Source: Octopus sinensis (taxonomy: Eukaryota). From it: DNA of 64,000 nucleotides. A program made the translations under genes and the position numbers. The notes beneath the pieces were generated by a model. That model saw only the letters and a list, made by a program, of their open reading frames with translations. It was not told where the DNA came from and ran no database searches. Shown piece by piece: positions 1-64,000 of this stretch. Location: assembly GCF_006345805.1 (NCBI RefSeq), contig NW_021825710.1, forward strand, positions 186,001 through 250,000, given 5' to 3'. How positions within the stretch are numbered: the stretch's first letter is position 1; each line of letters starts with the position of its first letter.

Positions 1-2157
1 GTTGATCCAACAAAGGGACCAGAAATCCGAATAGACAGTAGCGTTGTAGACAAAGCCATGAAGGATATGAAGACAGGGAAAGCCCCCGGCCCATCAGGAA
101 TAACCGCTATGATTCTTATAATATCTGGCGGTGTGGGTTATAGTCTAATCACTCAAAGTCATACCCAGTGACTGGTGTAGCAGCACCATAGCCAATTGTT
201 ACAAAGATGAAGGTGACGCCTTAGATAGAAATAATTATAGAGGTATCAAATTGTTGGATCGGGGGATGAACGTCATTGAGGGGATCATACCTCAAATAAT
301 TAGGAAGAGAGATAGTCTAGATGAGATGCAGTTTGGTTTTGTGCCAGGTAGAAGCACCACTGAAGCTATATTACCGGCAAGGCAGCTGCAGGAGAAATAC
401 CAAGCCGAAGATAAACTTCTGTACTTAGCTTTTGCTGATTTGGAGAAAGCTTTTGACAGGGACCCCGCTCCCTTATCTGATGTCAATGCGGAAAGTAGGG
501 ATAGGCGAGTGATTGGTGAGAGCTGTACAAGCCATATACAGGGATGCAGCCAGTAAGGTGAGGATTGGCAACGAGTATAGCGATGATTTCAGGGTACAAG
601 TAGAGGTTCACCAAGGATCAGTCCTCAACCAACTCCTGTTCATCACAGTCCTCCAGGCAATAACAGAGAATTCAAGACGGGCTGCCGTGAGAGCTCCTCT
701 ATGCTGATAAGCTTGTTCTTATAGCCGAATCACTACAAGAACTAAAGAAATTTCAGGTGTCGAAGTAAGGTCTAGAATCGAAGGGCCTTAGAGTCAATCG
801 AGCAAAAACCAAAGTCTTAGTCAGTAAGAAAGCGAACAAATCAAAAATCCTTTCAGGTAGATGGTCCCGCTCGATATGTGGGAAAGATGTAGGTAGAAAT
901 TCTATAAGATGTACCCGGTGCAAGCAATGGATATATAAGAGGTGCAGCAATATCAGACGAAGGTTAACCAGGAAAATAGTTTTTGTTTGTGGAAGGTGCA
1001 CAGGTACAATAAGCACTAAAAATGTACAGAAAAAAGACTCCAACAAATGACAGTGGGGTAAGCTAGAAGTAGTCGATAGCTTCCGTTATCTAGGTGACCA
1101 AAGCAGTAGCGGAAGTCGCTGCTCCGAGAGCGTAGCTGCGAGAATAAGAACAGGCTGGACAAAGTTCCTAAAGCACCTACTTTTGCTGGCAACGAATGGC
1201 CTCTCTCTCTCTCAGAGTGAAAGGCAAACTGTATTATTCCTGTGTGCGAACAGCTATGCTACACAGCAGTGAAATATGGGCTGTGACCGCCCAGGATATG
1301 CGTAGGCTTGAAAGAAATGAAGCTAGTATGCTTCGTTAGATGTGCAATGTCAGTGTGCATGTACGACAGAGTGTGAACGTCTTAAGAAAAAAGTTGGACA
1401 AAAGAGGCACCAGATATGGTGTGCAAGAGAGACGACTGTGCTGATATGGTCATGTGATGCGTATGGATGAGGACAGCTGTGTGAAGATGTGCCGATCTCT
1501 CACTGTGGAAGGAATAGAGGTAGACCCAGGAAGACATGGGATGAGGTGATGAAGCATGATCTTCGAACGTTGGGCCTCACAGAGGCAATGACTAGTGACC
1601 GAAGACCTTTGGCGATATGCCGTACTTGGGAAGACCCATCAAGCCAAGTGAAATAGTAGTCGTGGCCGATGCTAGTGTCACGTAACTTGCACCCATATAG
1701 GTGGAACATAAAAAGCACCTTTTGAGCGTTGGGCCACGCGGAGGCAATGTGGCCGATGCCGGTGTCGCGTAACTAGCACCTGTGCCGGTGTCAACATAAC
1801 TAGCACCTGTGCAAGTGGCACGTAAAAAGCACCTTTCGAGCATTGGGCCTCACACAGGCAATGACAAATGATCTAGACCTTTGGCAATATGCTGTACTTG
1901 AGAAGATACTCATCAAGCCAAGTGAAGTCGTAGTCGTGGCAAATACTGGTGTCATGTAACTGGCACCTGTGCTGGTGGAACTAAAAAGTATCCACTACAC
2001 TCTCGGAGTGGTTGGCTGTAGGAAGAGCATCCAGCCGTAGAAACCATGCCAAATTTGACTGTAGTCTGGTGCAGCCCCCTGAGCTTGCCAACCTTGGTCA
2101 AACCGTCCAACTCATGCCAGCATGGACAACGGGCATTAAATGATGATGATGATGATG
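1..2157 (+). mobile_element. RTE-clade LINE, degenerate (RT + PHD-like finger + 3' UTR with (GAT)n tail); runs off window start
   Basis: ORF fragments QFGFVPGRST / AFADLEKAFDR / VHQGSVL with frameshifts; clearly homologous to 57313-60333 and 62211-64000; ends in (GAT)n at ~2140-2157. Confidence 0.9.
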
Positions 2158-6397: not shown

Positions 6398-8252
6398 TAT
6401 ATATACAGTAAATAAGAAAATGGTGAGGATGCAAAAACGACATACATCAGCCGGTTGACATTCTAGTATGTCTATTTATTCAAAAGTATTAAAAAGTAAT
6501 AGAATACATGCACATATAATAACTATGTGTTACATACACATGTACTAATATTACAGAAAAGAGAAAAAGAGCAAAAGATCAGATTGTCAGCAGGTTCTAG
6601 TTCCTTACGGCTGTTTCTGCCAAATCCTCCATGCCATCGCCATCTCTTCGGTGTTCTGCAGGGATGGGCAGATAAAGTTTGGATGATGAATGTGCCTCTA
6701 CGCTTGGACGAAATAACATGGATCTTGGAATACATCACGGGTAATCTGTAGTTTATTCTCCTTCCTATACCCAAATAATTTTAATAAGTTGTGCTTCACT
6801 AACATCCTCATGTTTGCTCCTATTCTTTTTCTGCCCTTTCAAAAAGACAAACACACTGCACCTATTGTTAACTGTTTCTTATTTGTATTAACCCTCCCAA
6901 CCACTTGGACCCTCAGAAGAAGCCTAGAGGCACATTCATCTTCCAAATACTATCTGCCCATCCCTACTGAGGGATGAAGATGGCATGAAGGATTTCGTTG
7001 CCTCTTGGCAGAAACGGCCATCTTTTGCTCAGTGACAGTGGTTGCTGGGAAAAGCATTAAATAGATATTCGCAAACAGGTCTATCCTCATCGAAAACCCG
7101 TGATTACCGTACGTTGACGAGAGGCAAAAACCTCGAAACTATATATATATATATATTTCAATGGATGAATGAATTATCCTATGTTTACCGTTAACATGGA
7201 AAATTCAATAAACCGTTACCAGGGTAGCAAAATTCACGTCAGAAACACGGTTGAAGCGACCTATCCAAAGGTAGAATGTGCAGTAATTTGTGTGTTATAA
7301 ATGAATAAATAAATAAATGGAGTTGAACGAAGATGTTAATAAAATTCTTTTACTTTCGACATATGTTTCGAAGACAACATGGTTTTATTCCAAAGGAATA
7401 AACGGTGTAAAATGCAATCTTCTCATCAGGAAAGAAAGAGAGCCTCTCTCAACAACAAGACATTATAGCAATTACGATGACTGCCTACATGATAAACAGA
7501 ACGTTATTAAGTATTTAAAAAAGCCGTTAGTAGATTTGACATCAAATATATAATATATAAGAGAGAGAGAGAGAGAGAGATCCAATGAAAGATGAATATC
7601 AGTTTATTACACATTACGAAAGAGCTACTAATAGTTTCATACTTTTAGGATATTTTAAATAGGTAGATTTATAAAACACGTTATGTATCTTCAAGCAATA
7701 TTTCAGGTTCTGTTTATGCGTTAGATATAGTTTAAAAACCAGGATGCTGGACAGTAAGAAGATAAGAAAAAACAAGAAGACAAACGCAAAGAAGATTGAT
7801 GCAAAAATAGAACGAGAAGGAAACGAAAGCAAGAAAATCAACATTCTCGTCCTCTCTCATTGCAGAAACCAATTAGTGCAGCCAGTGTAGAACAAAATAA
7901 CAGAAAATATACCAAATTCTACGAGACAGCAACTCAATCCGGAGTGGGTGGTGTCCTCTAGTTTGACAAAAGAAACCCGTCCATATGTTTGCAACTGCTA
8001 AAAAAATTACAGATCTGGAATTAAGCTGTGTGATGGAATTCTTTGTCTAAGAAGAATATGAGATCTTTCTGCTACTCATAAGTAGCAGAGGCATTAACAT
8101 ATGGCTTGAATTTTGATACGATTCTCCACTTAATAGTATGTGGTGTGGAGTTGGCCTTCAAACCCCATACGTGGCTAGCCAACTTAATTGCATAACTTTG
8201 GTCGATGTACCGGAGAGAAGATAGGTGGTTTGCACATATATATATATGCATG

Positions 8253-25703: not shown

Positions 25704-25857
25704 TTTTATCCACTTTTTTTTTTACTAAATTCAGATATTGCTGATAATTTCAATCCTAAGAAATTATTTCTCCTGGCATTTTTGCACTGGTCATTGTTAT
25801 TGCATTTTCAGGAATTCTGATTTGTGTACCGTGGTGAAAATCTTCATTGTAATTAAA

Positions 25858-26809
25858 ATGGCACCAAAAGGAAAAGAATTGTTTGAAGATTTGAAGAAAA
25901 TCATTTTTAATTTGCACAAGAATGGTTTAGGATACATGTTAATTAGCAAACGAATACATATTTGCGTAAATACAGTTGCCGAAGTAATTCAGAAGTACGA
26001 AGCTACTGGATGGCTAACCAACAAACATCGTCCAGGTTGTCCTATTTTAACTGCTCGTAATATTCGCCACATCCAACGTCGCGTGATGGATGACATGCGT
26101 CGTACCGCTTCATCTTTAGCCCAAGAAGTGTCTTCTCAAACAGTTCGCCGAAGTTTGAACCAGTGTGGTCTTCATGGACGCATTCCTCGTAGGAAGCCTC
26201 TCCTCACTACTAGGCATAATATATCGATTCTTCATTCTTTTGCTGAAACCTATGTGAGTAAGGGGAAGTTTTGGAATGAAATTCTTTTTTCTGACGAGAC
26301 TAAAATCAACTTGTTTGGGTCACATGGTATTAAACGAGTATGGCGACGGCAAGGTGAAGATAATAGCGACAAATGCACTGTGTCTACCGTGAAACACGGC
26401 GGCGGAAGTATTATGCTTTGGGGATGCATGAGTGCGGCTGGTGTGAGAGGACTCACATTTATTGAGAGAACAATTGATTCAAGGCATATTGCAGAAAACA
26501 TTGTTAAAAAGCATCAAGGAACTAGGGACCTTAAACACACTTCAAAGATGACGACTAAGTTTTTATCAGATAAAAAGGTAAAGGTATTGCCTTGGCCTAC
26601 CATTTCATCTGATTTAAATCCAATAGAATATCTGTAGCTTGTTTTGAAAAGGCAAGGTGAGGAGAAAAAATCCCCGCAATGTAACACAGTTGAAAGACAT
26701 CAGGATGAATGGAGGTCGATTTCATCGGTTATATGAGAAAATTTAGTTGACTATGCCCAGAAGACTTAATGCAGTCAATGAAAGCAAAGGCGGTCGCACC
26801 AAATATTGA
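25858..26809 (+). pseudogene. Tc1 DD34E-type transposase, disrupted
   Basis: MAPKGKEL..RRKPLL..FSDETK..VKHGGGSIMLWGC..WPTISSDLNPIE; premature stop at 26637, remnant GGRTKY* at ~26809. Confidence 0.9.
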
Positions 26810-28906: not shown

Positions 28907-29075
28907 TCTTTTACTCCTTTACTTGTTTCAGTCATTTGACGGTGACCATGCTGGAGCACCGTCTTTTAGTCGGAGAAATCGACCCTTGGACTTATTCTTT
29001 GTAACCCTGGTGCTTATTCTATTGGTCTCTTCTGCCGTAACATTAATTGTCAAACGATGGTGGGGGACAATCACT

Positions 29076-29138
<63 letters not shown>

Positions 29139-29189
29139 GACGGGGTTCTTTCAGTTGTATGTTGTCTTCAATAAGATTGATGTAAGTCC

Positions 29190-29600
29190 CACATCAACTG
29201 TCAAAAAGTGTGGCCGCCCCAATTGTGGGATTTGCATCGATCATATTGAAGACACAACACATAAATTCAAATCAGGACAGATTTTTACGGTAACAAATCA
29301 CTTTACATGTTCTTCAAGGAATTTAATATATGCTATCAAATGTCAAGGATATAATGAAGATGACATAAGTCAATCGAAGCTTACTTTAAGAAAGACTGAC
29401 CATTCACCGACAACAAATACGAGATCCCAGTACTAGACAGATTCTACTGAGTGGACACATAGATATATGTGCAAAAATAAGTCCCCCCCAAATTCCAGGT
29501 CTTCCCACTCTACCTATGTTCAGTGAATACCACAGATAAAGCACGGATAAATAAAGAGAATACTTTCATTTAAAAGTGCAAACCCAGACTTAAACTTTAA
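29190..29600 (+). pseudogene. Penelope-like GIY-YIG endonuclease relic
   Basis: KCGRPNCGIC..FTCSSRNLIYAIKCQG..SQSKLTLR. Confidence 0.75.
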
Positions 29601-31463: not shown

Positions 31464-32870
31464 ATTAGAGATAAAACCACTACTAAGCAAATCAAACAGT
31501 GAAAACCATAAGCCAATACATAGAAATAAAATTAATTAAAAAATATATAAAAAATATAAAATATAAAATATAAAAATCCAATTAAAATATTTAAATTAAA
31601 GTTAAAAATTTTTTTAATTATTTAAATTAATAATTTAAACTTATAAATTATAAATATATATATTTTTATTATTATTTTATTTAATTATTTTTTTTTATTT
31701 ATATTTTTTTTATTTTTCTTCTTATTTTTTAAAAATATTTTTATATATTTTATATTTTTATATTTTATATTTATTTATTTTTTTATGAACTATCAAAAAG
31801 TATTAAAAGTTTAATAAGATAAAGAGTAAAAACACTACGATTGTTTCATGCCGGTAACCAATTCGAATAACAATAATTTAAATTCAATTAATAATTCGAG
31901 TTATGGTTACAGTCAATCTTCTGGTTAATTGTAATATTTTTATAAATAATCAAAAATATTTAAACAACACTTTTTAAGAAATAAATAATATAATAAATTT
32001 TCTTATAAAACCTCTATTATCAAACTAGAAACTTAACGATTATGATTATGTCAAAACAACGATTATAATGTTAAATATTAATTTTAAGTTTTAAGTATTA
32101 ATTTTTAAGGTAAGAAACCCACCAATAATCTAATATCAGTAATAGTCAATATCTAATTACATAAATATTTTACAAAAAAAATGATTATTCATATTATTAA
32201 AATATAAAATTTAAATAATATATAAATTATCAATGAAAATATATAAATGCATATAAATATATAATTAAGATCTAAATAATCTCTATAAATAAATATATAT
32301 GCACATATAATAAAGACCTAATAAATTAATTTTTCATATTTAAAGATGAAATAGCTAATTTCAAAAATACAAACAAACCATCTTAAACGAACGCTATAGT
32401 AAATTAACTATCTTTATCTCTTTGGCTAAATAATAACTTTCAAAAATCTTATCTTTAAAGTACTTAAAGAAATAATCAATTCGTAGTTATATAGTAACAA
32501 ATAAATACTATAGATATATTTATCAATGGGAATAATGTAACTAGCAAATAACAATTTAAAAAGACAATATATAAGTTAAAATAATAATTATAAGAAATTT
32601 AAAACTACAATTAATGCTATTAATACATGTATATACATGAATCTAACTTATACAAACTCATATACTTGCTATCAAACAACTTATCTATCGCTAAGTAAAT
32701 TCTTACGAATAAACTTAAAGTTAATATCTAATAATTAAATAGAAAATTACGATAATTGGATAAACAACGATATATACATAAAAAAAAACAATAATATTAT
32801 ACCATAAGACTTATAAATATTAAAATTTAAAGATCTTAAATATAAATATATACTTATCTTAGCGAGGTTT
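31455..32870 (-). mobile_element. Very AT-rich non-coding repeat, diverged copy of 44535-45640
   Basis: shared blocks ATTAAATTAGAGATAAAA, TATCTAATTACATAAATATTT, AAGATGAAATAGCTAATTTCAAAA, CTTAGCGAGGTTT; degenerate hammerhead on minus strand ~31833-31927. Confidence 0.8.
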
Positions 32871-32957
32871 TGTAATGAAAAAATTAGGTGGAGAGATATG
32901 TTCAATTATTCCAGTACCTTCGAATTTAATATTGAAATATTAAATTATTGTTGGAGT

Positions 32958-33040
32958 CCCATGCTGATGAAGAAAATGGTTGGTAAAGTATAATTCTATA
33001 TTCTTTATACTGATCTAATTCCAAAACGTGCGTACATGGG
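32958..33040 (+). ncRNA. Degenerate hammerhead-like motif (relative of the 39719 family)
   Basis: CCCATG-CTGATGA...AAAAC GTGC GTA-CATGGG; G12 appears mutated to A; downstream 33120-33220 resembles 39905-40005. Confidence 0.6.
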
Positions 33041-33233
33041 TGACCAGATATTGATTGATTTTCGTTACTTTTCCTCTCTGCCTGTGTGGATTGTTTTCAA
33101 GTATTTTGGTTTTTCTGGGAGTCCCTTTTTAAAGTAGAAGAAATAGCTAAGGTATTTTGGCTGCTATTTCTAAACTTCAGTATGTGGTAAAGCAAATCTT
33201 TGCTGAACCCTAATTATTAAGTATATATATATG

Positions 33234-38322: not shown

Positions 38323-38964
38323 TAAATAATGATGAAAGGAAGAAAAGGGAGAATTATGGATGTATTAATAATATATTTGTATGATACAAATAAATTATAC
38401 ATTATAAAGCTCTAAAAGAAATGGCAGATGCCAAAAACCTACATATATGTTTTGATTCATGCCCCTAGATGATCTGTAATTCTATGCATTTGGGTAGGGT
38501 CATATACTAAGAATTGGGCACCATTTTTGACTATATAGGGAAGAATCTCAGGGCTTTATGAGCTTATACTACAAAGGTTAACATATTTCTTGAAAGGATG
38601 CTGATGAATTACTCTGCCTAAATGCTTATGAATTGAAACATATGTGTAGGTTTTTAGCATCTGCCATTTCTTTTAAACTTTATAATATATAATTCATTTG
38701 TATTGTTTTTTTAAAAAAAACTGTCAACCTCATTATATCATGCAAATAAATTATCTATACAATCATAATTCTCCATTTTCTTTCTTTTATTATCAACAAT
38801 ATGTATTACAATTATAATCCCTAACATATTGTCAAGACTTTATCCTTATATGATACTGATTAACCAGTGAAATTTTGGGACTATTTAATCCCTAATGAGG
38901 ACTTGACATCTTCGAATTGACTATACACACACACACACACATTCATATATATGCATACATATAC

Positions 38965-38999
<35 letters not shown>

Positions 39000-39085
39000 T
39001 ACATGTAGATATATATATATAAATGTATACACATATATATGTGTGTATGTATATATTATATATATATATTATATATATATATAAT

Positions 39086-39345
39086 ATCATCATCATCATC
39101 ATCATCATCGTTTAACGTCCGCTTTCCGCGCTAGCACGGGTTGGACGGTTCGACCGGGTCTGGGAAGCCAGGGGCCGCTCCAGGCTCCAGTCTGAATCTG
39201 GCAGAGTTTCTACGGCTGGATGCCCTTCCTAACGCCAACCACTCCGTGAGTGGATTGGGTGCTTTTTACGTGCCACCTGCACAGGGGCCGGAGGGTCCGG
39301 CATCGGTCACGATCGGTTCGAGCTTTTAACGTGTCAGCGGCACGG
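39086..39345 (-). mobile_element. 5'-truncated 3' end of the RTE family
   Basis: (CAT)n-CGTTTAACGTCCG..GGATGCCCTTCCTAACGCCAACCACTCCG as at 57313 and 62211. Confidence 0.85.
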
Positions 39346-39718
39346 GGGCAACGAGGTCCGGGGTACTTTGGGGATCGGGGTACTTTGGGGATCGGGGTAC
39401 TTTGGGGATCCAGTATATATATATAATATATACATACACACATATATATGTGTATACATTTATATATATATATATATATCTACATGTATGCATATATATA
39501 TATATATATATATACATTATACATTATAAAGCTCTAAAAGAAATGGCAGATGCCAAAAACCTACATATATGTTTTGATTATCTGGTGACACAATCTTTTC
39601 ATTCACACATTGAATTTGGTGATACTAGTTGCGGATTCTAGCTCGCTCTGATACTGAGTTGAGTTGGTGCCTTCTAGTATCTCAAAATTCAATATATAAT
39701 CATTTATGATTATAGTAT

Positions 39719-39818
39719 TCTACGCTGAAGAGAAAAGAAGTTTTGGTAAGGTAGAATTATTTAATATTTAATTCTTATGCTTTCCTAAAAACTTGATTTC
39801 GAAACGTGCGTCCGTAGA
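39719..39818 (+). ncRNA. Type-I hammerhead ribozyme-like motif, intact core
   Basis: TCTACG-CTGAAGA-GAAA..AAGTTTT...AAAACTT..TTTC-GAAAC GTGC GTC-CGTAGA. Confidence 0.82.
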
Positions 39819-40310
39819 TAACTTAAAATTGTATGATAGATTGCCGTCAATTCATTCTCTCTTACCTGTTTGTGTCTGCCTTCCAATTGCTGTTTTTACT
39901 GAGATCTCCCTTTTTAGTAGAAGAAATAGCTATAACTCTTTGACTGCTATTTCTAAATTCGGTATGTGGTAAGGCAATTCGTTGCTAAACCCTTTATTGC
40001 TTAGTATTACTTAAATTTTCCTCGAATGAGGCTTTTACATGCCAAAGACTACTTGGTGTAATTGATAATTATTCCAAATTAATTAATTTCACCCTTCATT
40101 ATTACGGATAACCATATTTTATCTCAGTAGATGACCACAGCATCTGTTTTGGCTACACGCGGGTGGGAAGGGGCTGGTGACACAATCTTTTCATTCACAC
40201 ATTGAATTTGGTGATACTAGTTGCGGATTCTAGCTCGCTCTGATACTGAGTTGAGTTGGTGCCTTCTAGTATCTCAAAATTCAATATATAATCATTTATG
40301 ATTATAGTAT

Positions 40311-40410
40311 TCTACGCTGAAGAGAAAAGAAGTTTTGGTAAGGTAGAATTATTTAATATTTAATTCTTATGCTTTCCTAAAAACTTGATTTTGAAACGTG
40401 CGTCCGTAGA
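40311..40410 (+). ncRNA. Type-I hammerhead ribozyme-like motif, second copy
   Basis: same as 39719-39818 with C>T at the base of stem II (G-U pair). Confidence 0.78.
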
Positions 40411-40595
40411 TAACTTAAAATTGTATGATAGATTGCCGTCAATTCATTCTCTCTTACCTGTTTGTGTCTGCCTTCCAATTGCTGTTTTTACTGAGATCTC
40501 CCTTTTTAGTAGAAGAAATAGCTATAACTCTTTGACTGCTATTTCTAAATTCGGTATGTGGTAAGGCAATTCGTTGCTAACCCTTTATTGCTTAG

Positions 40596-40639
<44 letters not shown>

Positions 40640-40706
40640 GTATATGTTTATATATGCATACATGTAGATATATATATATAAATGTATACACATATATATG
40701 TGTGTA

Positions 40707-40759
<53 letters not shown>

Positions 40760-50659: not shown

Positions 50660-51060
50660 GAAAAGACACTGTAGCAACTGCCAAAGGAAAAATGAATACA
50701 AATTTAATAACAACTGTATGGTAAAGTACATAATTTACAAATGTGAAGAGAAGATGAGTGTACAAAAATATGTGTACACTGGCGCAACCAGAGACACCAT
50801 GAAAAATCGCCTATGTCATTTTCCAATGAAAACATAAGTCACTGCACATCATTATCTAACCTCATCTGGAGGCTCAAACAGAATGGAGTGGAACAGACAA
50901 CTAACTGGTCTATAATAAAAAGCACAAGACTATATGATAAAATATCGCAGGTATGTAACTTATGCCAAGAGGAAAACTCTGGAGATCGTTACATTCACAA
51001 ACCACATAATTAATAGGTGTTCCGAAATAATTGTATCATGCAAACATAAGATCATAGCAT
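50660..51060 (+). pseudogene. Penelope-like GIY-YIG relic
   Basis: IIYKCE..YTGAT..TSLSNLIWRLK..WSII..CNLCQEE. Confidence 0.75.
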
Positions 51061-51929
51061 CCTTCCCAGGATTTGACCAGAACATAATGAAACAGGGAAA
51101 CACTAACCATTATTAGCATCTATCTGAACAATAGAAGGACCTTGTAAATGAGCTAAACAATGGTGCACATCCATCCCTGTGAACAATGAAAACAATATAG
51201 AAAATACGGTAAGTGCTTGATATTACAAAACTGAGCATACTTGGTAATCAACAGTTGCTGAACCTACTGGATTAATGCAAGCATGAGCAACATCGAAGAA
51301 CTAATTGTACCACCAGAAGTAATTAACATTACCCTTTCAGGGAACAACTCTTCTCAACTCAAACTTAAGGATATCAGGCAATTCCTGATTTGTGACTAGC
51401 AAATATCAGGCAATTCCTGATCTGTGATTAGCAAATACTTCAAACCAGTAACATCAAAATAAAATTAGCCCCTTTGCCCTGCAGCATCTGAATTCATTAA
51501 GAAAGCACCTGCTGTGCCTAAACTTAAACCAATGACCTATGTTCCCCCATCCCATTCTTCTCTATCATTGATATTCCTTTCTCTCTACTTGACTCTAACT
51601 TCCCTTGACAACATAAATATCACTCTATCTTTAATAGATCCACCCTGAAACTATCTTATTCAAACTCACCTAACTTTGAATCTATTGTAGCAGCCTCCAA
51701 TAAGCAAAAGCTCTCTCTTTACTATCAAAACTCACATAACAACAACTCTACTAATACTAATAATCAACACTCATACATATATAGCATAGATACTATCACA
51801 CCTGGTAATAATCGCAACCCAACCTATTCTACCGACAATGTCCAGAATACCACCACAATCTCTAATGCCCTGACAAATAGCAGAAGTAACAGTAACAATA
51901 GTAGTAATGGCGGTGGTAGTAATGATAAC

Positions 51930-51999
<70 letters not shown>

Positions 52000-52079
52000 T
52001 AGAAATTTTCACATCCTTCTATAACCTCTCTTCTGATGATACTACCTCCTCAGTTACCGGACACGATCCTCAAAATTCA

Positions 52080-52500
52080 CCTAATTGTAATTGCCGTCCT
52101 GGAACAACCTGCCTGCTACAAACCCATTGCAGAAGATATAATGTAATCTACAAATGCACGGTCCTTAACCAATTACACAACTCTACAGCCATATATATAG
52201 GATCAACAAAAAACTTTAAGCAACGATATGCCACTCAATTCCACTCTTTTAGATACGATAAACATAGTAAATCTACAACACTCGCCAACCACATACATCA
52301 TCTCAAAAATACAAATATTCCCTACTAGACTCAGGGACTTCCCTACCGAGGTCAACACTCAATCTCCAAGCTTTGCCTGAAGGAGGCACTCCAAATATTG
52401 AAGCACAACTCTCCAACACTGCTTAATAAACATAACAAAGCATTAAGCACACGCAACCACTGCTTTTATCACACATTTAAATTCTATCACAAATCCAAAT
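52080..52500 (+). pseudogene. Penelope-like GIY-YIG relic
   Basis: CNCRPGTTCLL..C..NVIYKCTV..IYIGSTKNFKQRY..HSFR..STTLANHIHHLK (translated by hand). Confidence 0.8.
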
Positions 52501-57162: not shown

Positions 57163-57312
57163 ATATTGTTATCACTAGCGATATCAAGATATAACTTTGT
57201 ATTTTGTATTTTATGTGCAGATGTATATATATATAGATGTACATGTAATATGTACGCATATATACATGCACTAGCACTATGACCTGGGAATGATGGGTCA
57301 TAATGCTAGTAT

Positions 57313-60300
57313 ATCATCATCATCGTTTAACGTCCGTTTTCCATGCTAGCATGGGTTGGACATTTCAACTGGGGTATGGGAAGCCAGAAGGCTGCACCAG
57401 GCCCAGTCTGATCTGGCAGTGTTTCTACAGCTGGATGCCCTTCCTAACGCCAACCACTCCGAGAGTGTAGTGGGTGCTTTTTATGTGCCACCTGCACAGG
57501 TGCCAGACGAGGCTGGCAAACGGCCACGATCGGATGGTGCTTTTTACATGCCACCGGCATGGGGACCAGATGAGGCTGGCAATGGCCACAATCGGATGGT
57601 GCTTTTTAGGTGCCACCGGCACAGAGGTCAGTCGGGGCAGCGCTGGCAACGGCCACATTCGGATGGTTCTCTTACGTGCCACCGGCACTAGTATCTCAGC
57701 TACAATTTCCATTAATGTTGAACGATTTCGATTTCAATTTTCGCTTGCCTCAACGGGTCTTCACAAGTAGGGTTTGTGTCACAAGAAGGAAAGGTATGCA
57801 TAAGTGGGCAGGCTACGTTCCAGGTAGAGGCCACAGGTGATGGTCTCACTTGTCCTGCCAGGTCCTCCCACGCACAGCATACTTCCAAAGGTCTCGGTCT
57901 CTGGTCATTTCCTCGGTGAGACTTAAAGTTTGGAGGTCGTTCTTCACCACCTCGTCCCAGGTTTTCCTGGGTCTACATCTTCCACAGGTTCCCTCAACCG
58001 CCAGGGTGTGACACTTTTACACACAACTATCTTCATCCATTCTCGCTACATGACCATACTAGCACAAACGTCTCTCTTGCACACCACAGCTGATGCTTCT
58101 TAGGTCCAACTTTTCTCTCTAGGTACTCACACTGTCAAGTATGAACACTAACATTACACATCCATCGGAGCATACTGGCTTCATTTCTTGTGAGCTTACA
58201 CATATCCTCAGCAGTCACGGCCCAAGTTTCACTGCCATGTAGCATGGCTGTTCGTACACTTGCATCATACAGTCTGCCTTTTATTCTGAGCGAGAGTCCT
58301 TTTGTCACCAGCAGAGGTAAGAGCTCTCTGAACTTTGCCCAGGCTATTCTTACTCTAGCAGTTACACTTTCAGCACACCTGCCCCCGCTACTGACTTGGT
58401 CACCTAGGTAACGGAAGCTATCAACTACTTCTAGTTTTTCTCCCTGGAATGTGGCAGAAGTTGGTCTCTGAGCATTTTCAGTGCTTATTGCTCCTGAGCA
58501 TCTGCCACATACAAAAACTATCTTCCCAGTTAGCCTTCCTTTGACATTGCTGCACCTCTTATGTGTCCATAGCTTACACTTGGTGCATCTTATAGAGTTT
58601 CTACCTACGCCTTTTCTACAGATCGAGCAGAGCCATCTACCTGAAGGCGTTTGTGATTTTCCTGCCTTCCTACATATTAGGACTTTGGTTTTAGCTAGAT
58701 TGACTCTAAGGCCCTTCGATTCTAATCCTTGTCTCCATACTTGAAACTTTGCCTCTAGTTCTGATAGTGACTCAGCAATTAGAGCAAGGTCATCAGCATA
58801 GAAGAGCTCCCAGGGGCATCCTGTCTTGAATTCCTCTGTTATTGCCTGGAGGACTATGATAAGTAGGAGGGTGCTGAGGACTGAACCTTGGTGGATCCCT
58901 ACCTCTACCCTGAATTCTTTAGTGTACTCGTTGCCAACCCTCACCTTACTTACAGCGTCTCTGTACATGGCTTGCACAGCTCTCACTAACCATTCATCTA
59001 TCCCTAGTTTCCTCATTGACCACCAGATAAGGGATCGGGGGACCCTGTCAAAGGCTTTCTCCATGTCAACGAAAGCCAGGTACAGGGGCTTATCTTTGGC
59101 TAGGTATTTCTCCTGCAGCTGTCTTACCAGAAATATGGCATCAGTGGTGCTTTTCCCTGGCATGAAACCAAACTGCAGCTCATCCAAGCTGACTCTCTCC
59201 CTAATCAGTTGGGATATGACCCTCTCCGTAACCTTCATTACCTGATTCAACAGCTTGATACCTCTGTAATTATTTGTATCTAAAGCATCACCTTTACATT
59301 TGTAGCAGTTGACTATTATGCTGCTACACCAGTCATTGGGTATGACTCCTTCGTGTATAACCTGGTTAACTATATGGGTGACTAGGCTATAGCCGACATT
59401 ACCAGATATTTTGAGCATCTCTGCAGTAATTCCTGATGGGCCTGGGGCTTTCCCTGTCTTCATGCTTCTAATTGCCTTAACTACTAAGGAACTATCAACT
59501 CGGATAGCTGGTCCCTCTGTTGGGTCAACATTCGGCAGACTCTCTTTATCCCATTCATTTTCCTTATTTAGCAGCCTCTCATAATGGTGTCTCCAAACCT
59601 CTCTCTTTGCATCCTCATTCAATACAAGTGAGCCATCATCCATGCGAACACATTTCCTCCGACCACATCACGATTCTCTCTCACACACTGTCTTGCAACA
59701 TGGAATACCTCAAGTCTTTGGTCCTCATGGCGCAGAACATTGGCAAATTTTTTCTTATCTGCTTCCCTTCTGGCTAAATAAACCTGTCTCCTAGCTTCTC
59801 TTTTGGTAGTCTGATACAATTCCCTGCTACCCCCATTCTTCCAGTCCTTCCAAGCCTGTCTCTTTTCTCTAATAGCCCTGTCTACAACATTATTCCACCA
59901 CCACGTTATTCTAGGTCGAGAGGGGACTTTGCACCAGCCACAGATCTGGTCAGTGGCTCTCAGCAGGTTGTCCCTTAGAAACCTCCAGTTGTCTTCTACC
60001 CCATGTGAAGCTCTATCCCCTTCTACTTTGTCAAAGGCTTCAAGTAATATGTCCCTAAGTCTCTGTCCATTCGCAAGATCTTTAAGCCTCCAGATCCTTC
60101 TCTATGTTGGTCGTCTTCTGGTTGTCTTCTTAGTCCTGATCCTAAAGTCACTAACTACCAGTTTATATTGTGGGGTACATTCTTCGCCTGGGAAGGTTTT
60201 GGCATTTATAAGCAGCCATCTTTCCCTTTTTCTGGCAAGGATGTAGTCAATTTGGCTGGTGTGTCGGCCCGATCGGTAAGTGACTAGGTGGCTGGTAGGT

Positions 60301-60605: not shown

Positions 60606-62210
60606 AATGTAATCTCTCTCTCTCTATATATATATAGTATAGAACTTGAAAAACAAACTACTCAAAATTATGTGGAGTGTACATGTGTGCATGAGTGAGT
60701 GTGTATCTATATCTATGTAGTGTAGTAGAGCAAATACATTGAGCATAAGAAAAATCAGATACATTGTGCAAGAGAGAAGACTGTACTAATATAATTATGT
60801 GATGCACGTGTTTGAGAACAGTTATATATATAAAGAGTGATGATCTCTAAATGTGGATGGAATTTGTGGAAGAGAGGGACCTAGGATGACAATGGGATGA
60901 ACTAATGAAGGTTGCTTTCATGCTTGACCTCACAGGGAAAATGATAAAGGACTGAGATGATTGGTGACCCAAAATGACCTGTGGCTTGATGTGAGGTCCT
61001 GAAAGCATTATGCTTACTTCTACACACTCATTGGGCCCTGTCCCTACACTCAATCTGTCTTCATGAAGCCTTCCCGAAATCTCATCTTCCTAACACCCAT
61101 CCCTCCACTCCACTAACTAGGACACTATTCAGTTGCTGGAACCCTATAAGAACAAAATCTGCACATATTTCATCCTCTTTTGTGTTGCCAGTAATCCCAG
61201 CTCTCCCTGGAATCTTTAATATCCATCCCTCAAACTCAATATCATCTCTTTCCACCAATCCCCTCTTTCTATGTTTCTAGTTATTTCTCCCTTTCCTCTT
61301 AATTATATCTTATACCTAATCTCTAATACACTTTCTTATCTGCTATCATTCTCATCATCCTCACATATCTGTCATCAAAAGCCTTCCTCATTACCTTTGT
61401 CCCCCTCTCACTATAGTAACTCATATGTATGTCTGATAAACATCTCTCTCCTCCTACACCTCTCTCCCAGTTTACTCATCATCTCCCTATTCTCTACTCT
61501 GTCTACAGGTTTATTATGCTTCCTGTACTACCACTTATCACCTTCTCCCCACCATACTGATATTTACCATCAATCATATTTCAACCCTTATTCCATTCTC
61601 TATATTCACCTCTACACCTGTCACTGTCTGCCACTCTCCTCTCCTCTCACACTCTAATGAAATTATCCATCCACCCTTCCAGAGTTTTTGCCCCAATTCT
61701 ACTATACTCACCTTCTTGTATCTTGAGACTAAGCTTCGATAACTCATTACAATTATCATTGTCTTCTTTTCAGCTACTAATACTCACCCTTATATAATGC
61801 AAGAAAGCCACGTATCTCCTATATAGCAAATCGCTTGTTTCTACCCTCTATAATACTCTAGACATTTGGCATAGAGCCACCTCCCTTTTTACTATACCTC
61901 CATTCAGTTGTATAGTCTTTTCCTATGTCTTGTGAGTTACTCGGTGATCTCACTAGTATTGGTGTTATGAAATAAAGCACCTGCTACACTCTGTAAAGTG
62001 CTTGGCATGAGGAAGGATATCCAGTCACAGAAACCATATCTAACAGACACAGGAGCTGAAAACTAACCTCTAGCTCACTGTCAAACTGTCCAACCCATGC
62101 AAGTATGGAAAACAGATGTTAAATGATGATGATGCTTCTATGTGTACAGAAATATTTAATTAGGCTAAAACAGTATTTCACAAATGTCTAATACATTTTT
62201 AAGCAATATC

Positions 62211-64000
62211 AACATCATCATTTAGCATCCGCTTTCCATGCTAGCATGGGTTGGATGGTTCAACTGGGGTCTGTGAAGCCGGAAGGCTGCATCAGGCCCA
62301 GTCTGATCTGGCAGTGTTTCTACGGCTGGATGCCCTTCCTAACGCCAACCACTCCGTGAGTATAGTGGATGCTTTTTTACGTGCCACCCGCACGGGGGCC
62401 AGGCGAGGCTGGCAACGGTCACGAACGGATGGTTCTCTTACGTGCCACCAGCACTGGTAACTCAGCAGCAATTTCCATTGATCGATTTCGATTCTGATCC
62501 TCACTTGCCTCAACAGGTCTTCACAAGTAGAGTTTTGTGTCCCAAGAAGGAAAGGTATGCATATGTAGGCTGGCTCCATCCCATGTAGAAGGCCACGGGT
62601 GATGGTCTCACTTGTCCTGCCGGGTCTTCTCGCGCACAGCATACTTCCAGAGGTCTCGGTCTCTAGTCATTTCCTCAGTGAGACCTAAAGTTCGAAGTTC
62701 ATGCTTCACCACCTCGTCCCAGGTTTTCCTGGGTCTGCCTCTTCCACAGGTTCCCTCAACCGCTAAGGTGTGACACTTTTTCACACAACTATCTTCATCC
62801 ATTCTCGCCACATGCCAATACCAGCGCAAACGTCTCTCTTGCACACCACAGCTGATGCTTCTTAGGTCCAGCTTTTCTCTCACTTACACAGAGGTACTTA
62901 CACTCTGTCGAGTATGAGTACTGACATTACACATCCATCGGAGCATACTGGCTTCATTTCTTGCGAGCTTATGCATATCCTCAGCAGTCACGGCCCATGT
63001 TTCACTGCCATGTAGCATGGCTGTTAGTACACACGCATCATACAGTTTGCCTTTTACTCTGTGTGAGAGGCCTTTTGTCACCAGCAGAGGTAAGAGCTCT
63101 CTGAACTTTGCCCAGGCTATTCTTACTCTAGCAGTTACACTTTCAACACATCCGCTCCCGCTACTGACTTGGTCACTTATGTAACGGAAGCTATCAACTA
63201 TTTCTAGTTTTTCTCCCTGGAAAGTGACGGAAGTTGGTCTCAGAGCATTTTCAGTGTTTATTGTTCCTGAGCATCTGTCACATACAAAAACCATCTTCCT
63301 AGTTAGCCTTCCTTTGACATTGCTGCACCTCTTATATGTCCATAGCTTACACTTGGTGCATCTTATAGAGTTTCTACCTACACCTTTTCTACAGATCAAG
63401 CAGGGCCATCTACCTGAAGGCGTTTGTGATTTGTCTACCTTCCTACATATTAGGACTTTGGTTTTAGCTAGATTGACTCTAAGGCTCTTCGATTCTAATC
63501 CTTGTTTCCACACCTGAAACTTCTCCTCCAGTTCTGATAGTGACTCAGCAATTAGAGCAAGGTCATCAGCATAGAGGAGCTCCCAAGGGCATCCTGTCTT
63601 GAATTCCTCCATTATTGCCTGGAGGACTATGATAAATAGGAGGGGGCTGAGGACTGAGCCTTGGTGGACCCCTACCTCTACCCGGAATTCTTCACTGTAC
63701 TCGTTGCCAACCCTCACCTTACTAGCAGCATCCCTGTACATGGCTCGCACAGCTCTCACTATCCATTCATCTATCCCTAGTTTCCTCATTGACCATCAGA
63801 TAAGGGATCAGGGGACCCTGTCGAAGGCTTTCTCCTGCAGCTGCCTTACCAGGAATATAGCATCAGTGGTACTTTTCCCTGGCACAAACCCAAACTGCAT
63901 CTCATCTAAACTAACTCTCTCTCTGTAATTAGTTGGGCTATGGCCCTCTCCGTAACCTTCATCACCCGATCCAACAGCTTGATACTTCTGTAATTATTTG
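62211..64000 (-). mobile_element. RTE-clade LINE copy, runs off window end
   Basis: 301-aa ORF with YADD and PHD-like finger; highly similar to 57313-60333. Confidence 0.95.

Follow-up and report, generated by a model that had tools for sequence, protein, structure and literature searches.

The question raised by this locus is whether a short non-coding tandem carrying two hammerhead motifs is the footprint of reverse transcription around a circular RNA, as a preliminary description of the window (the whole 64,000-nucleotide stretch of Octopus sinensis DNA analysed here) had proposed, and which enzyme would then have copied it. The window belongs to a small, unplaced contig of a 2.72 Gb genome that is rich in TA microsatellites. 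The answer that we favour, and regard as fairly probable, is that the tandem is a copy of a young, non-coding, non-LTR retrozyme in which paired hammerheads would cut the RNA, a circle would form, and a borrowed enzyme would copy it into (TA)n in the manner of Penelope elements (PLEs).

The tandem and its paired hammerhead motifs

The element occupies positions 39582-40598 on the plus strand and is a single-arm, 5′-truncated insertion of 1.7 units, here assigned to family A, whose 3′ end coincides with the first of two start sites (site I). Its repeated portions, 39582-40007 and 40174-40598, are 99.5% identical over 426 columns, with one substitution and one 1-nt gap, at a period of 592 nt. 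The longest ATG ORF on either strand of the circular family A unit is 36 aa, and the reading of the locus as a non-coding 1.7-mer with a 592-nt period holds. The predicted cut-to-cut monomer (39813-40404, plus strand) is 592 nt long, non-coding and 34% GC, and its circular fold, at -152.5 kcal/mol, is far more stable than those of 40 dinucleotide shuffles (z = -5.5). Across the loci fetched, the commonest period is 593 nt (26 loci) versus 592 nt (17 loci); because matching contigs from all four sequencing runs compared share an extra T at 40144, the window copy is probably one base short. A scan of the window against Rfam gave zero matches at the gathering score.

To the right, the insertion adjoins its (TA)n-rich target tract (40599-40743, unstranded). 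The TA-rich portion from 40604 to 40743 is 93% like 38945-39083, and the 64 bases immediately preceding the element's 5′ end repeat 38394-38457 without a mismatch; these flank copies possibly go back to duplication of the locality or to templated insertion at that 5′ junction. Elsewhere, the window contains what we take to be a three-copy SINE-like repeat (39096-39267, 57311-57482 and 62206-62377), fragments of LINE-type RT ORFs (58135-59667, 62884-63795 and 149-556) and a transposase-like ORF (25729-26637).

Hammerhead motif 1 (39719-39818, plus strand), recognised by sequence, motif scan and folding, combines a 6-bp stem I (TCTACG at 39719-39724 with CGTAGA at 39813-39818), CTGAAGA (39725-39731), a stem II region of 69 nt followed by GAAA, a self-complementary stem III, ACGUGCGU, and GAAACGTGCGTC, which ends at the predicted cut after 39812. 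Stem I is the open stem, which makes the motif a type I rather than a type III hammerhead. Motif 2 (40311-40410, plus strand, predicted cut after 40404) is alike except for G10.1·U11.1 at 40392, where C11.1 has become U, so that stem II is closed by a G·U wobble instead of a G-C pair; among the 37 insertions compared, all others lack this change. Stem I, CTGAAGA, GAAACGTGCGTC and both predicted cuts were recovered at the positions given in the preliminary description, each recurring 592 nt later. That description also spoke of two intact hammerheads: both motifs are indeed present, but neither is expected to function without the other, and stem II of the second closes with the wobble pair.

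Alone, stem III amounts to two pairs and a 4-nt loop (+2.4 kcal/mol); its 8 nt paired with a second copy give -8.8 to -13.3 kcal/mol. Because stem III is self-complementary, both window hammerheads look dimer-dependent in these models and are predicted to be functional only when paired. The minimum-energy fold of the unit is predicted not to form hammerhead stem I. A self-complementary stem III is found in 127 of 133 distinct motifs upstream of a shared 3′ module, a set defined by linkage to that module and picked for at least five of six stem I pairs. Stem III reads ACGUACGU in 73 of these motifs, ACGUGCGU in 32, ACGCGCGU in nine and ACGCGU in eight, while stem I is altered on both strands between families; such conservation of the motif across families suggests that the ribozyme has been under selection.

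Canonical metazoan type I dimer hammerheads, as presented in the accessible text of PMC4209133, likewise have a 6-bp helix I, a short helix III with a palindromic loop and a G10.1-C11.1 pair, and are reported there to permit cleavage in multimers and avoid it in monomer circles. They differ in helix II, which is 4 bp against a far longer one here, and in the palindrome, which spans 8 nt in both family A and family B. Two of the three supplementary files of that paper do not mention cephalopods. According to the portion available of a survey that includes Xenopus (10.64898/2026.07.22.740005), only one of nine predicted Xenopus retrozyme dimers was cleaved, which counts against the cleavage predicted here. 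An unrelated type I hammerhead lies on the minus strand of the window at 7353-7435, with CUGAUGA, GAAA, a self-complementary stem III (ACAUAUGU) and a TA tract about 200 nt later; it has close relatives at two loci (L210 and L305) and is probably a member of another HHR-bearing repeat family.

Copy number, sister families and insertion ends

At least 463 exact site-I ends followed by TA are present in the genome, and the sequence just after the cut site has 687 exact genome matches. The best copies are 96-100% identical (best 40 of 1,200 candidates scored), and arrays reach 8.4 units. Judged by these matches, family A is a large, young, dispersed, high-copy family.

A second family, family B, is 60% identical to family A, and its period is also 592 nt. 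The window holds one truncated copy (32884-33222, plus strand), with a hammerhead at 32958-33040; this copy stops at the corresponding site I, within (TA)n. The preliminary description had placed a diverged relative at 32958-33220, with a different but still pairing stem I; the relative exists and its CCCATG/CATGGG stem is there, but its real start is near 32884, it belongs to this second family, and its core is broken. AAAAC stands in place of GAAAC, and because of this core G12A change (33023) the hammerhead, and with it the copy, is probably dead; GAAA is kept in the 21 other family B motifs listed. An extremely AT-rich stretch (31600-32880) lies upstream of the window copy and is absent from other family B copies.

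Families A and B share a hairpin, AGAAATAGC...GCTATTTCT, located in the window at 39922-39954 with a second copy at 40514-40546 (plus strand). It has 4,683 exact genome matches across families versus none for a reversed control, so the motif is not due to chance, and it is a candidate recognition site for the enzyme. Families C and E also carry the shared 3′ module, and older sister families (L125-L154, L003, L072 and L112) have the hairpin and two start sites at periods of about 500-600 nt with differing hammerhead stems, the palindrome of family E being ACGCGU, 6 nt.

Two start sites define the 3′ ends of family A. Site I (40003-40016, unit 422-435, plus strand) is read through in the first unit of the window copy, and its equivalent in the second unit is the 3′ end at 40598. 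Site II lies at 40099-40117 (unit 518-536, plus strand), and the interval between the two is the "tail" of about 100 nt found on one arm of two-armed insertions. A first set, drawn from the first 100 matches to the hairpin on one contig (C1), comprised a single locus per insertion and 57 loci in all, and 45 of the 57 were accepted as family A at 88% identity, including one (L122) that is probably family B. Their 75 arms have the 3′ end at site I (unit 412-435) in 43 cases, at site II (518-536) in 29 and elsewhere in three; 72 of the 75 end in TA, and the 5′ ends are scattered. The 45 insertions include 28 inverted pairs, of which 25 join a site-I arm to a site-II arm, none joins two arms of the same site and three have an odd end, a pairing that gives p ~1e-8 over the 25 classifiable pairs.

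A second set covered 80 regions from entries 15-100 of the site-I-plus-TA matches, and was hence chosen for a site-I end (two entries were already sampled, two were merged with neighbours and two others were omitted). It yielded 45 inverted pairs: 41 I+II, one I+I and three with an odd end. Arm II lies wholly beyond arm I in four of the 45, and these pairs are therefore not fold-back products, i.e., both arms would have been primed on RNA. In 20 of the 45, the two 5′ ends lie no more than 20 nt apart; fold-back copying could account for these, and agreement between their arms would then be trivial.

PLE insertions are described, in the available parts of 10.1101/2021.04.23.441226 and PMC8557442, as having a tail on one end, an inverted 5′ copy and a bias towards (TA)n, and in vitro two internal start sites define the tail (PMC11167929, in part). 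Because family A has the same one-end tail, inverted truncated arm, (TA)n targets and two internal start sites, a PLE-type mobilisation is very probable on sequence grounds. The likeness to the EN+ PLE clades, within the accessible text of PMC8557442 and PMC11167929, extends to 5′ truncation of the inverted second arm, variable 5′ ends, partial tandems and a hammerhead upstream of the start sites. Family A differs in having no RT/GIY-YIG ORF, in its many whole-unit repeats and in its tail of about 100 nt, against 30-40 bp in those papers.

The preliminary description had looked for varied circular permutations among genomic copies and had counted fixed ends as evidence against a circle. Neither expectation was borne out: the 3′ ends are fixed at two sites, and only the 5′ ends vary, through truncation. 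Fixed ends do not refute a circle, because they would be set by the start position of a PLE-type enzyme and are compatible with a circular template. Two apparent regularities of the 5′ ends were rejected: a fixed end at unit 544 was a listing effect, the loci themselves continuing further, and a step in the number of 5′ stops that coincided with the cut (first set: 28 in unit 232-331 and none in unit 132-231) was not repeated in the 80 regions of the second set. In short family A copies, 5′ ends cluster at the foot of the hairpin (unit 329-342, about 39910-39923 in the window), where a structure-induced stop or TA microhomology may be responsible.

Circular or linear template

Clonality was tested on 126 of 129 insertions, represented by 322 pieces longer than 60 nt and no less than 95% identical, at 17 diagnostic sites away from gaps. 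Site-by-insertion calls were mixed in three of 813 cases versus 248.5 expected under random drawing of units, the 17 sites being linked and the 813 calls thus not independent. Within the same arm, three of 690 calls were mixed, and between arms none of 377 was discordant versus 82.8 expected. The 56 arrays carry 40 haplotypes, and in 17 of them a private variant is found in every unit (for instance, 8/8 and 9/9); in L093 (8/8) and L091 (9/9), private variants are fixed in multi-unit arms on both sides of the inversion. Some variants are confined to a few adjacent units (L090, L091, L094 and L192), a pattern that suggests either duplication of neighbouring units at a later time or noise in the assembly consensus; each of these could also give arrays a more uniform look.

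The cut site itself leaves little trace in the copies. Crossings are free of indels in 47 of 49 cases at the cut, 56 of 58 at site I and 43 of 47 at site II; 98 of the 100 listed matches to the sequence just after the cut extend upstream through it, and 56 of the 124 arms of the second set cross it. Among the cut-site matches and the arms of the second set, 5′ ends did not accumulate at the cut. Because read-through is free and scarless, the template appears to have been continuous at the cut, either uncut or ligated. The uniform haplotypes imply repeated passage through a single unit followed by regrowth, since a linear template cannot lengthen an array; a circle provides both. The circular reading rests on arrays whose several units are clonal and on copies that pass the cut unscarred, and copying around a circular monomer seems likely. 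The original proposal of a retrozyme copied round a circle is thus supported in part, by these features of the family rather than by those it had looked for, although the 1.7-mer of the window alone shows no circle.

The alternative that survives best is PLE-type insertion from an uncleaved, linear multi-unit transcript, in which case slippage or unequal crossing-over would enlarge the arrays afterwards and the hammerhead would serve RNA processing or stability, or act only at a later stage. Its precedent lies in vitro, where, in the available text of PMC11167929, uncleaved RNA is the main PLE template and hammerhead mutants inserted normally. The absence of a 5′-end pile-up at the cut fits it as well as it fits a circle, and the variants found in a few adjacent units suggest that some local duplication has occurred. 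However, a linear template keeps or shortens arrays, yet the 40 haplotypes among 56 arrays include private variants fixed in all units, and this route would require that most lineages of a family with just 1-4% divergence passed through a single-unit bottleneck and then grew again. The retention of a self-complementary stem III across families also speaks against it, and we consider it unlikely.

Copying of a cut linear monomer, with the RT jumping from the template's 5′ end to its 3′ end, would mimic a circle, since it also gives clonal, seamless-looking arrays, and a few 5′ ends at unit 234-239 do lie beside the cut. Such jumps should nevertheless leave stops or small indels, which the clean crossings and continuing matches counted above do not show, and the step in stops at the cut disappeared in the second set. 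Jumps between molecules would moreover mix haplotypes, as seen in only the three mixed same-arm calls. This reading is very improbable, and copying around a ligated circle remains the one that we prefer.

Other signals in the unit were examined and discarded. An excess of A>G among array-fixed variants (p = 0.03, hand tally) was gone in a larger set (6/29 vs 17/127, p = 0.38), and RNA editing at unit 383 and 390 was rejected because the A>G differences between contigs match letters that occur in sister families. Contigs matching the unit come from 20 datasets of eight studies, none recorded as RNA, and hence are no evidence on transcription. An intron through the hammerhead, suggested by donor- and acceptor-like motifs, found no splice joints in these contigs, which show presence only.

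Coding PLEs, the proposed cycle and its meaning

If the ends are of PLE type, the copies might be pLTR remnants of a coding PLE still in the genome rather than an independent element. Their ends are exactly PLE-like, Xenopus retrozymes match PLE pLTRs (in the available part of 10.64898/2026.07.22.740005, such a match to a coding PLE is given for 24 of 57 families), and a rare coding master could be missed, since the genome searches score best candidates. For family A no such match was found; its longest arrays, up to the 8.4 units noted above, are non-coding and without an ORF, and five young coding families lack the unit. A PLE protein match lies at 11 of 235 family loci, and the four of these read by eye are separate insertions set apart by TA tracts. 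A remnant origin is accordingly a remote prospect. Attachment to a coding Penelope body, which the preliminary description would have counted against its reading, was not seen: the RT plus GIY-YIG ORF of an autonomous PLE is joined to no copy examined at the 235 loci. An assembly artefact or chance motif, suggested by the small unplaced contig and its locally duplicated flanks, can practically be dismissed, being refuted for the family by hundreds of copies whose sites and flanks differ and by overlapping contig pieces from four independent studies that span the whole unit and the cut site.

Candidate helpers were sought among the coding PLEs of the genome. Five families are young and intact: three Neptune-like (N1, N2 and N3, with two ORFs), reached from a Neptune-like GIY-YIG fragment at 29047-29436 of the window, and two Hydra-like (H1 and H2, with a single ORF). 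These clade names are provisional and follow the motifs described in PMC8557442. In the Neptune-like PLEs (L081-L089 and L305-L324), an upstream ORF1 of about 450-480 aa overlaps the RT-EN frame, and no hammerhead core was found in the repeats read of N1-N3, whereas published descriptions treat hammerheads as typical of canonical PLEs. The two Hydra-like families (L337-L366 and L325-L336) have intact ORFs of 727 aa and 717 aa, with 96-99% protein identity within each; H2 carries a canonical hammerhead, and H1 a core variant, CCGAAGA (U4C, in 11 of 12 loci), that may inactivate it. The window also holds a decayed Hydra-like fragment with RT thumb and GIY-YIG (51543-52487), whose family copies are about 88% identical and carry, about 1 kb further downstream, a hammerhead of their own (stem III ACAGCUGU); smaller pieces of the same kind lie at 8084-8230 and 50813-50974.

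TA is the target of all five young families, and their tails measure about 33-70 nt, short of the roughly 100 nt seen in family A. Profile and BLAST searches detected no sequence shared between the start module and N1, N2, N3, H1, H2 or an older Hydra-like family, the only matches to the module in these searches being separate retrozyme fragments nearby. In ten shuffle tests of the start module against PLEs, the best p was 0.013 (family B vs N2), which is not significant after correction. The search covered the Neptune-like and Hydra-like families, the Penelope/Poseidon, Nematis and Naiad clades lying outside it, and it scored best candidates.

Altogether, the preferred reading can be laid out as a cycle. 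Tandem copies would be transcribed, and neighbouring hammerheads would pair via their self-complementary stem III and then cut, a step for which conservation of the motif is observed and cleavage is expected. The 592-593-nt monomer would be ligated, and the lone hammerhead of a monomer circle would be slow, which, in the model of the literature, protects the circle. A PLE-like RT-endonuclease would cut (TA)n and start at one of two internal sites about 100 nt apart; both DNA ends would be extended, one from site I and the other from site II, yielding an inverted pair with a tail on one end. Copying would run round the template, through the cut, for up to eight units and stop variably, so that the units would be copies of one monomer. 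Of these steps, the (TA)n targets, the fixed ends, the joining of one site with the other in inverted pairs, the run-on through the cut with variable stops and the clonality of arrays are seen in the copies themselves; transcription, cleavage, ligation, the circle and the helper enzyme are inferred, though likely. More tentatively, and with somewhat less than even confidence, a dimeric PLE enzyme placed at both ends of the (TA)n break might use the two starts on a ribozyme-made circle and roll around it. It would act in trans, through the conserved hairpin and start-site module that several retrozyme families share with one another, and not detectably with coding PLEs, while unit and hammerhead stems diverged; arrays would then be clones of one circle.

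Family A adds a new family to the animal non-LTR retrozymes already known and does not amount to a new kind of element. As in those retrozymes, it has a hammerhead in consecutive units, is non-coding, low in GC and dispersed as mobile multimers, with a unit size in the known range. In the accessible text of PMC7229834 and 10.64898/2026.07.22.740005, the animal elements are non-coding tandems with one type I hammerhead per unit and a GC content below 45%, dispersed as dimers to multimers, which co-exist with PLEs and have a highly self-paired predicted circle; the dimer-type hammerhead resembles that of axolotl. The unit of 592-593 nt is larger than the 170-400 nt of invertebrates (PMC7229834) but within the survey range of 51-972 bp (10.64898/2026.07.22.740005), and a stem II of about 70 nt is unlike those of the animal non-LTR retrozymes described in these portions. 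Circles of animal retrozymes have been shown by northern blot, whereas family A is known here from genomic sequence alone. Plant LTR retrozymes (PMC4918200), as summarised in 10.64898/2026.07.22.740005, are also non-coding with a hammerhead-defined monomer of about 600 nt, but have a type III hammerhead, two LTRs and 4-bp target duplications, where family A combines a type I hammerhead and tandem units with PLE-type ends at TA targets.

Rolling-circle copying by a PLE has been proposed in PMC7229834 and 10.64898/2026.07.22.740005, with the helper as a candidate or hypothesis; insertion ends, start sites and array clonality are not mapped in the parts of these papers that were available. Our literature search yielded no publication that deals with retrozymes in this animal group or with the ends of their insertions in any organism, although subscription papers and some supplements were outside its reach, so that a prior listing of the family is conceivable. 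Two steps of the retrozyme cycle, mobilisation by a PLE enzyme and the circle as template, thus still stand as proposals in the accessible literature, and family A speaks to both. Young and abundant, it offers, through PLE-type ends in almost every copy together with clonal arrays, unusually clear genomic evidence for the proposed life cycle. It also supplies a defined RNA of 593 nt, with a conserved hairpin and two start sites whose positions are mapped, together with five young coding PLE families as candidate helpers, and its strict rule of one site per arm bears on how any PLE makes a one-sided tail. If the proposed cycle is true, the genome would be a direct fossil record of it.
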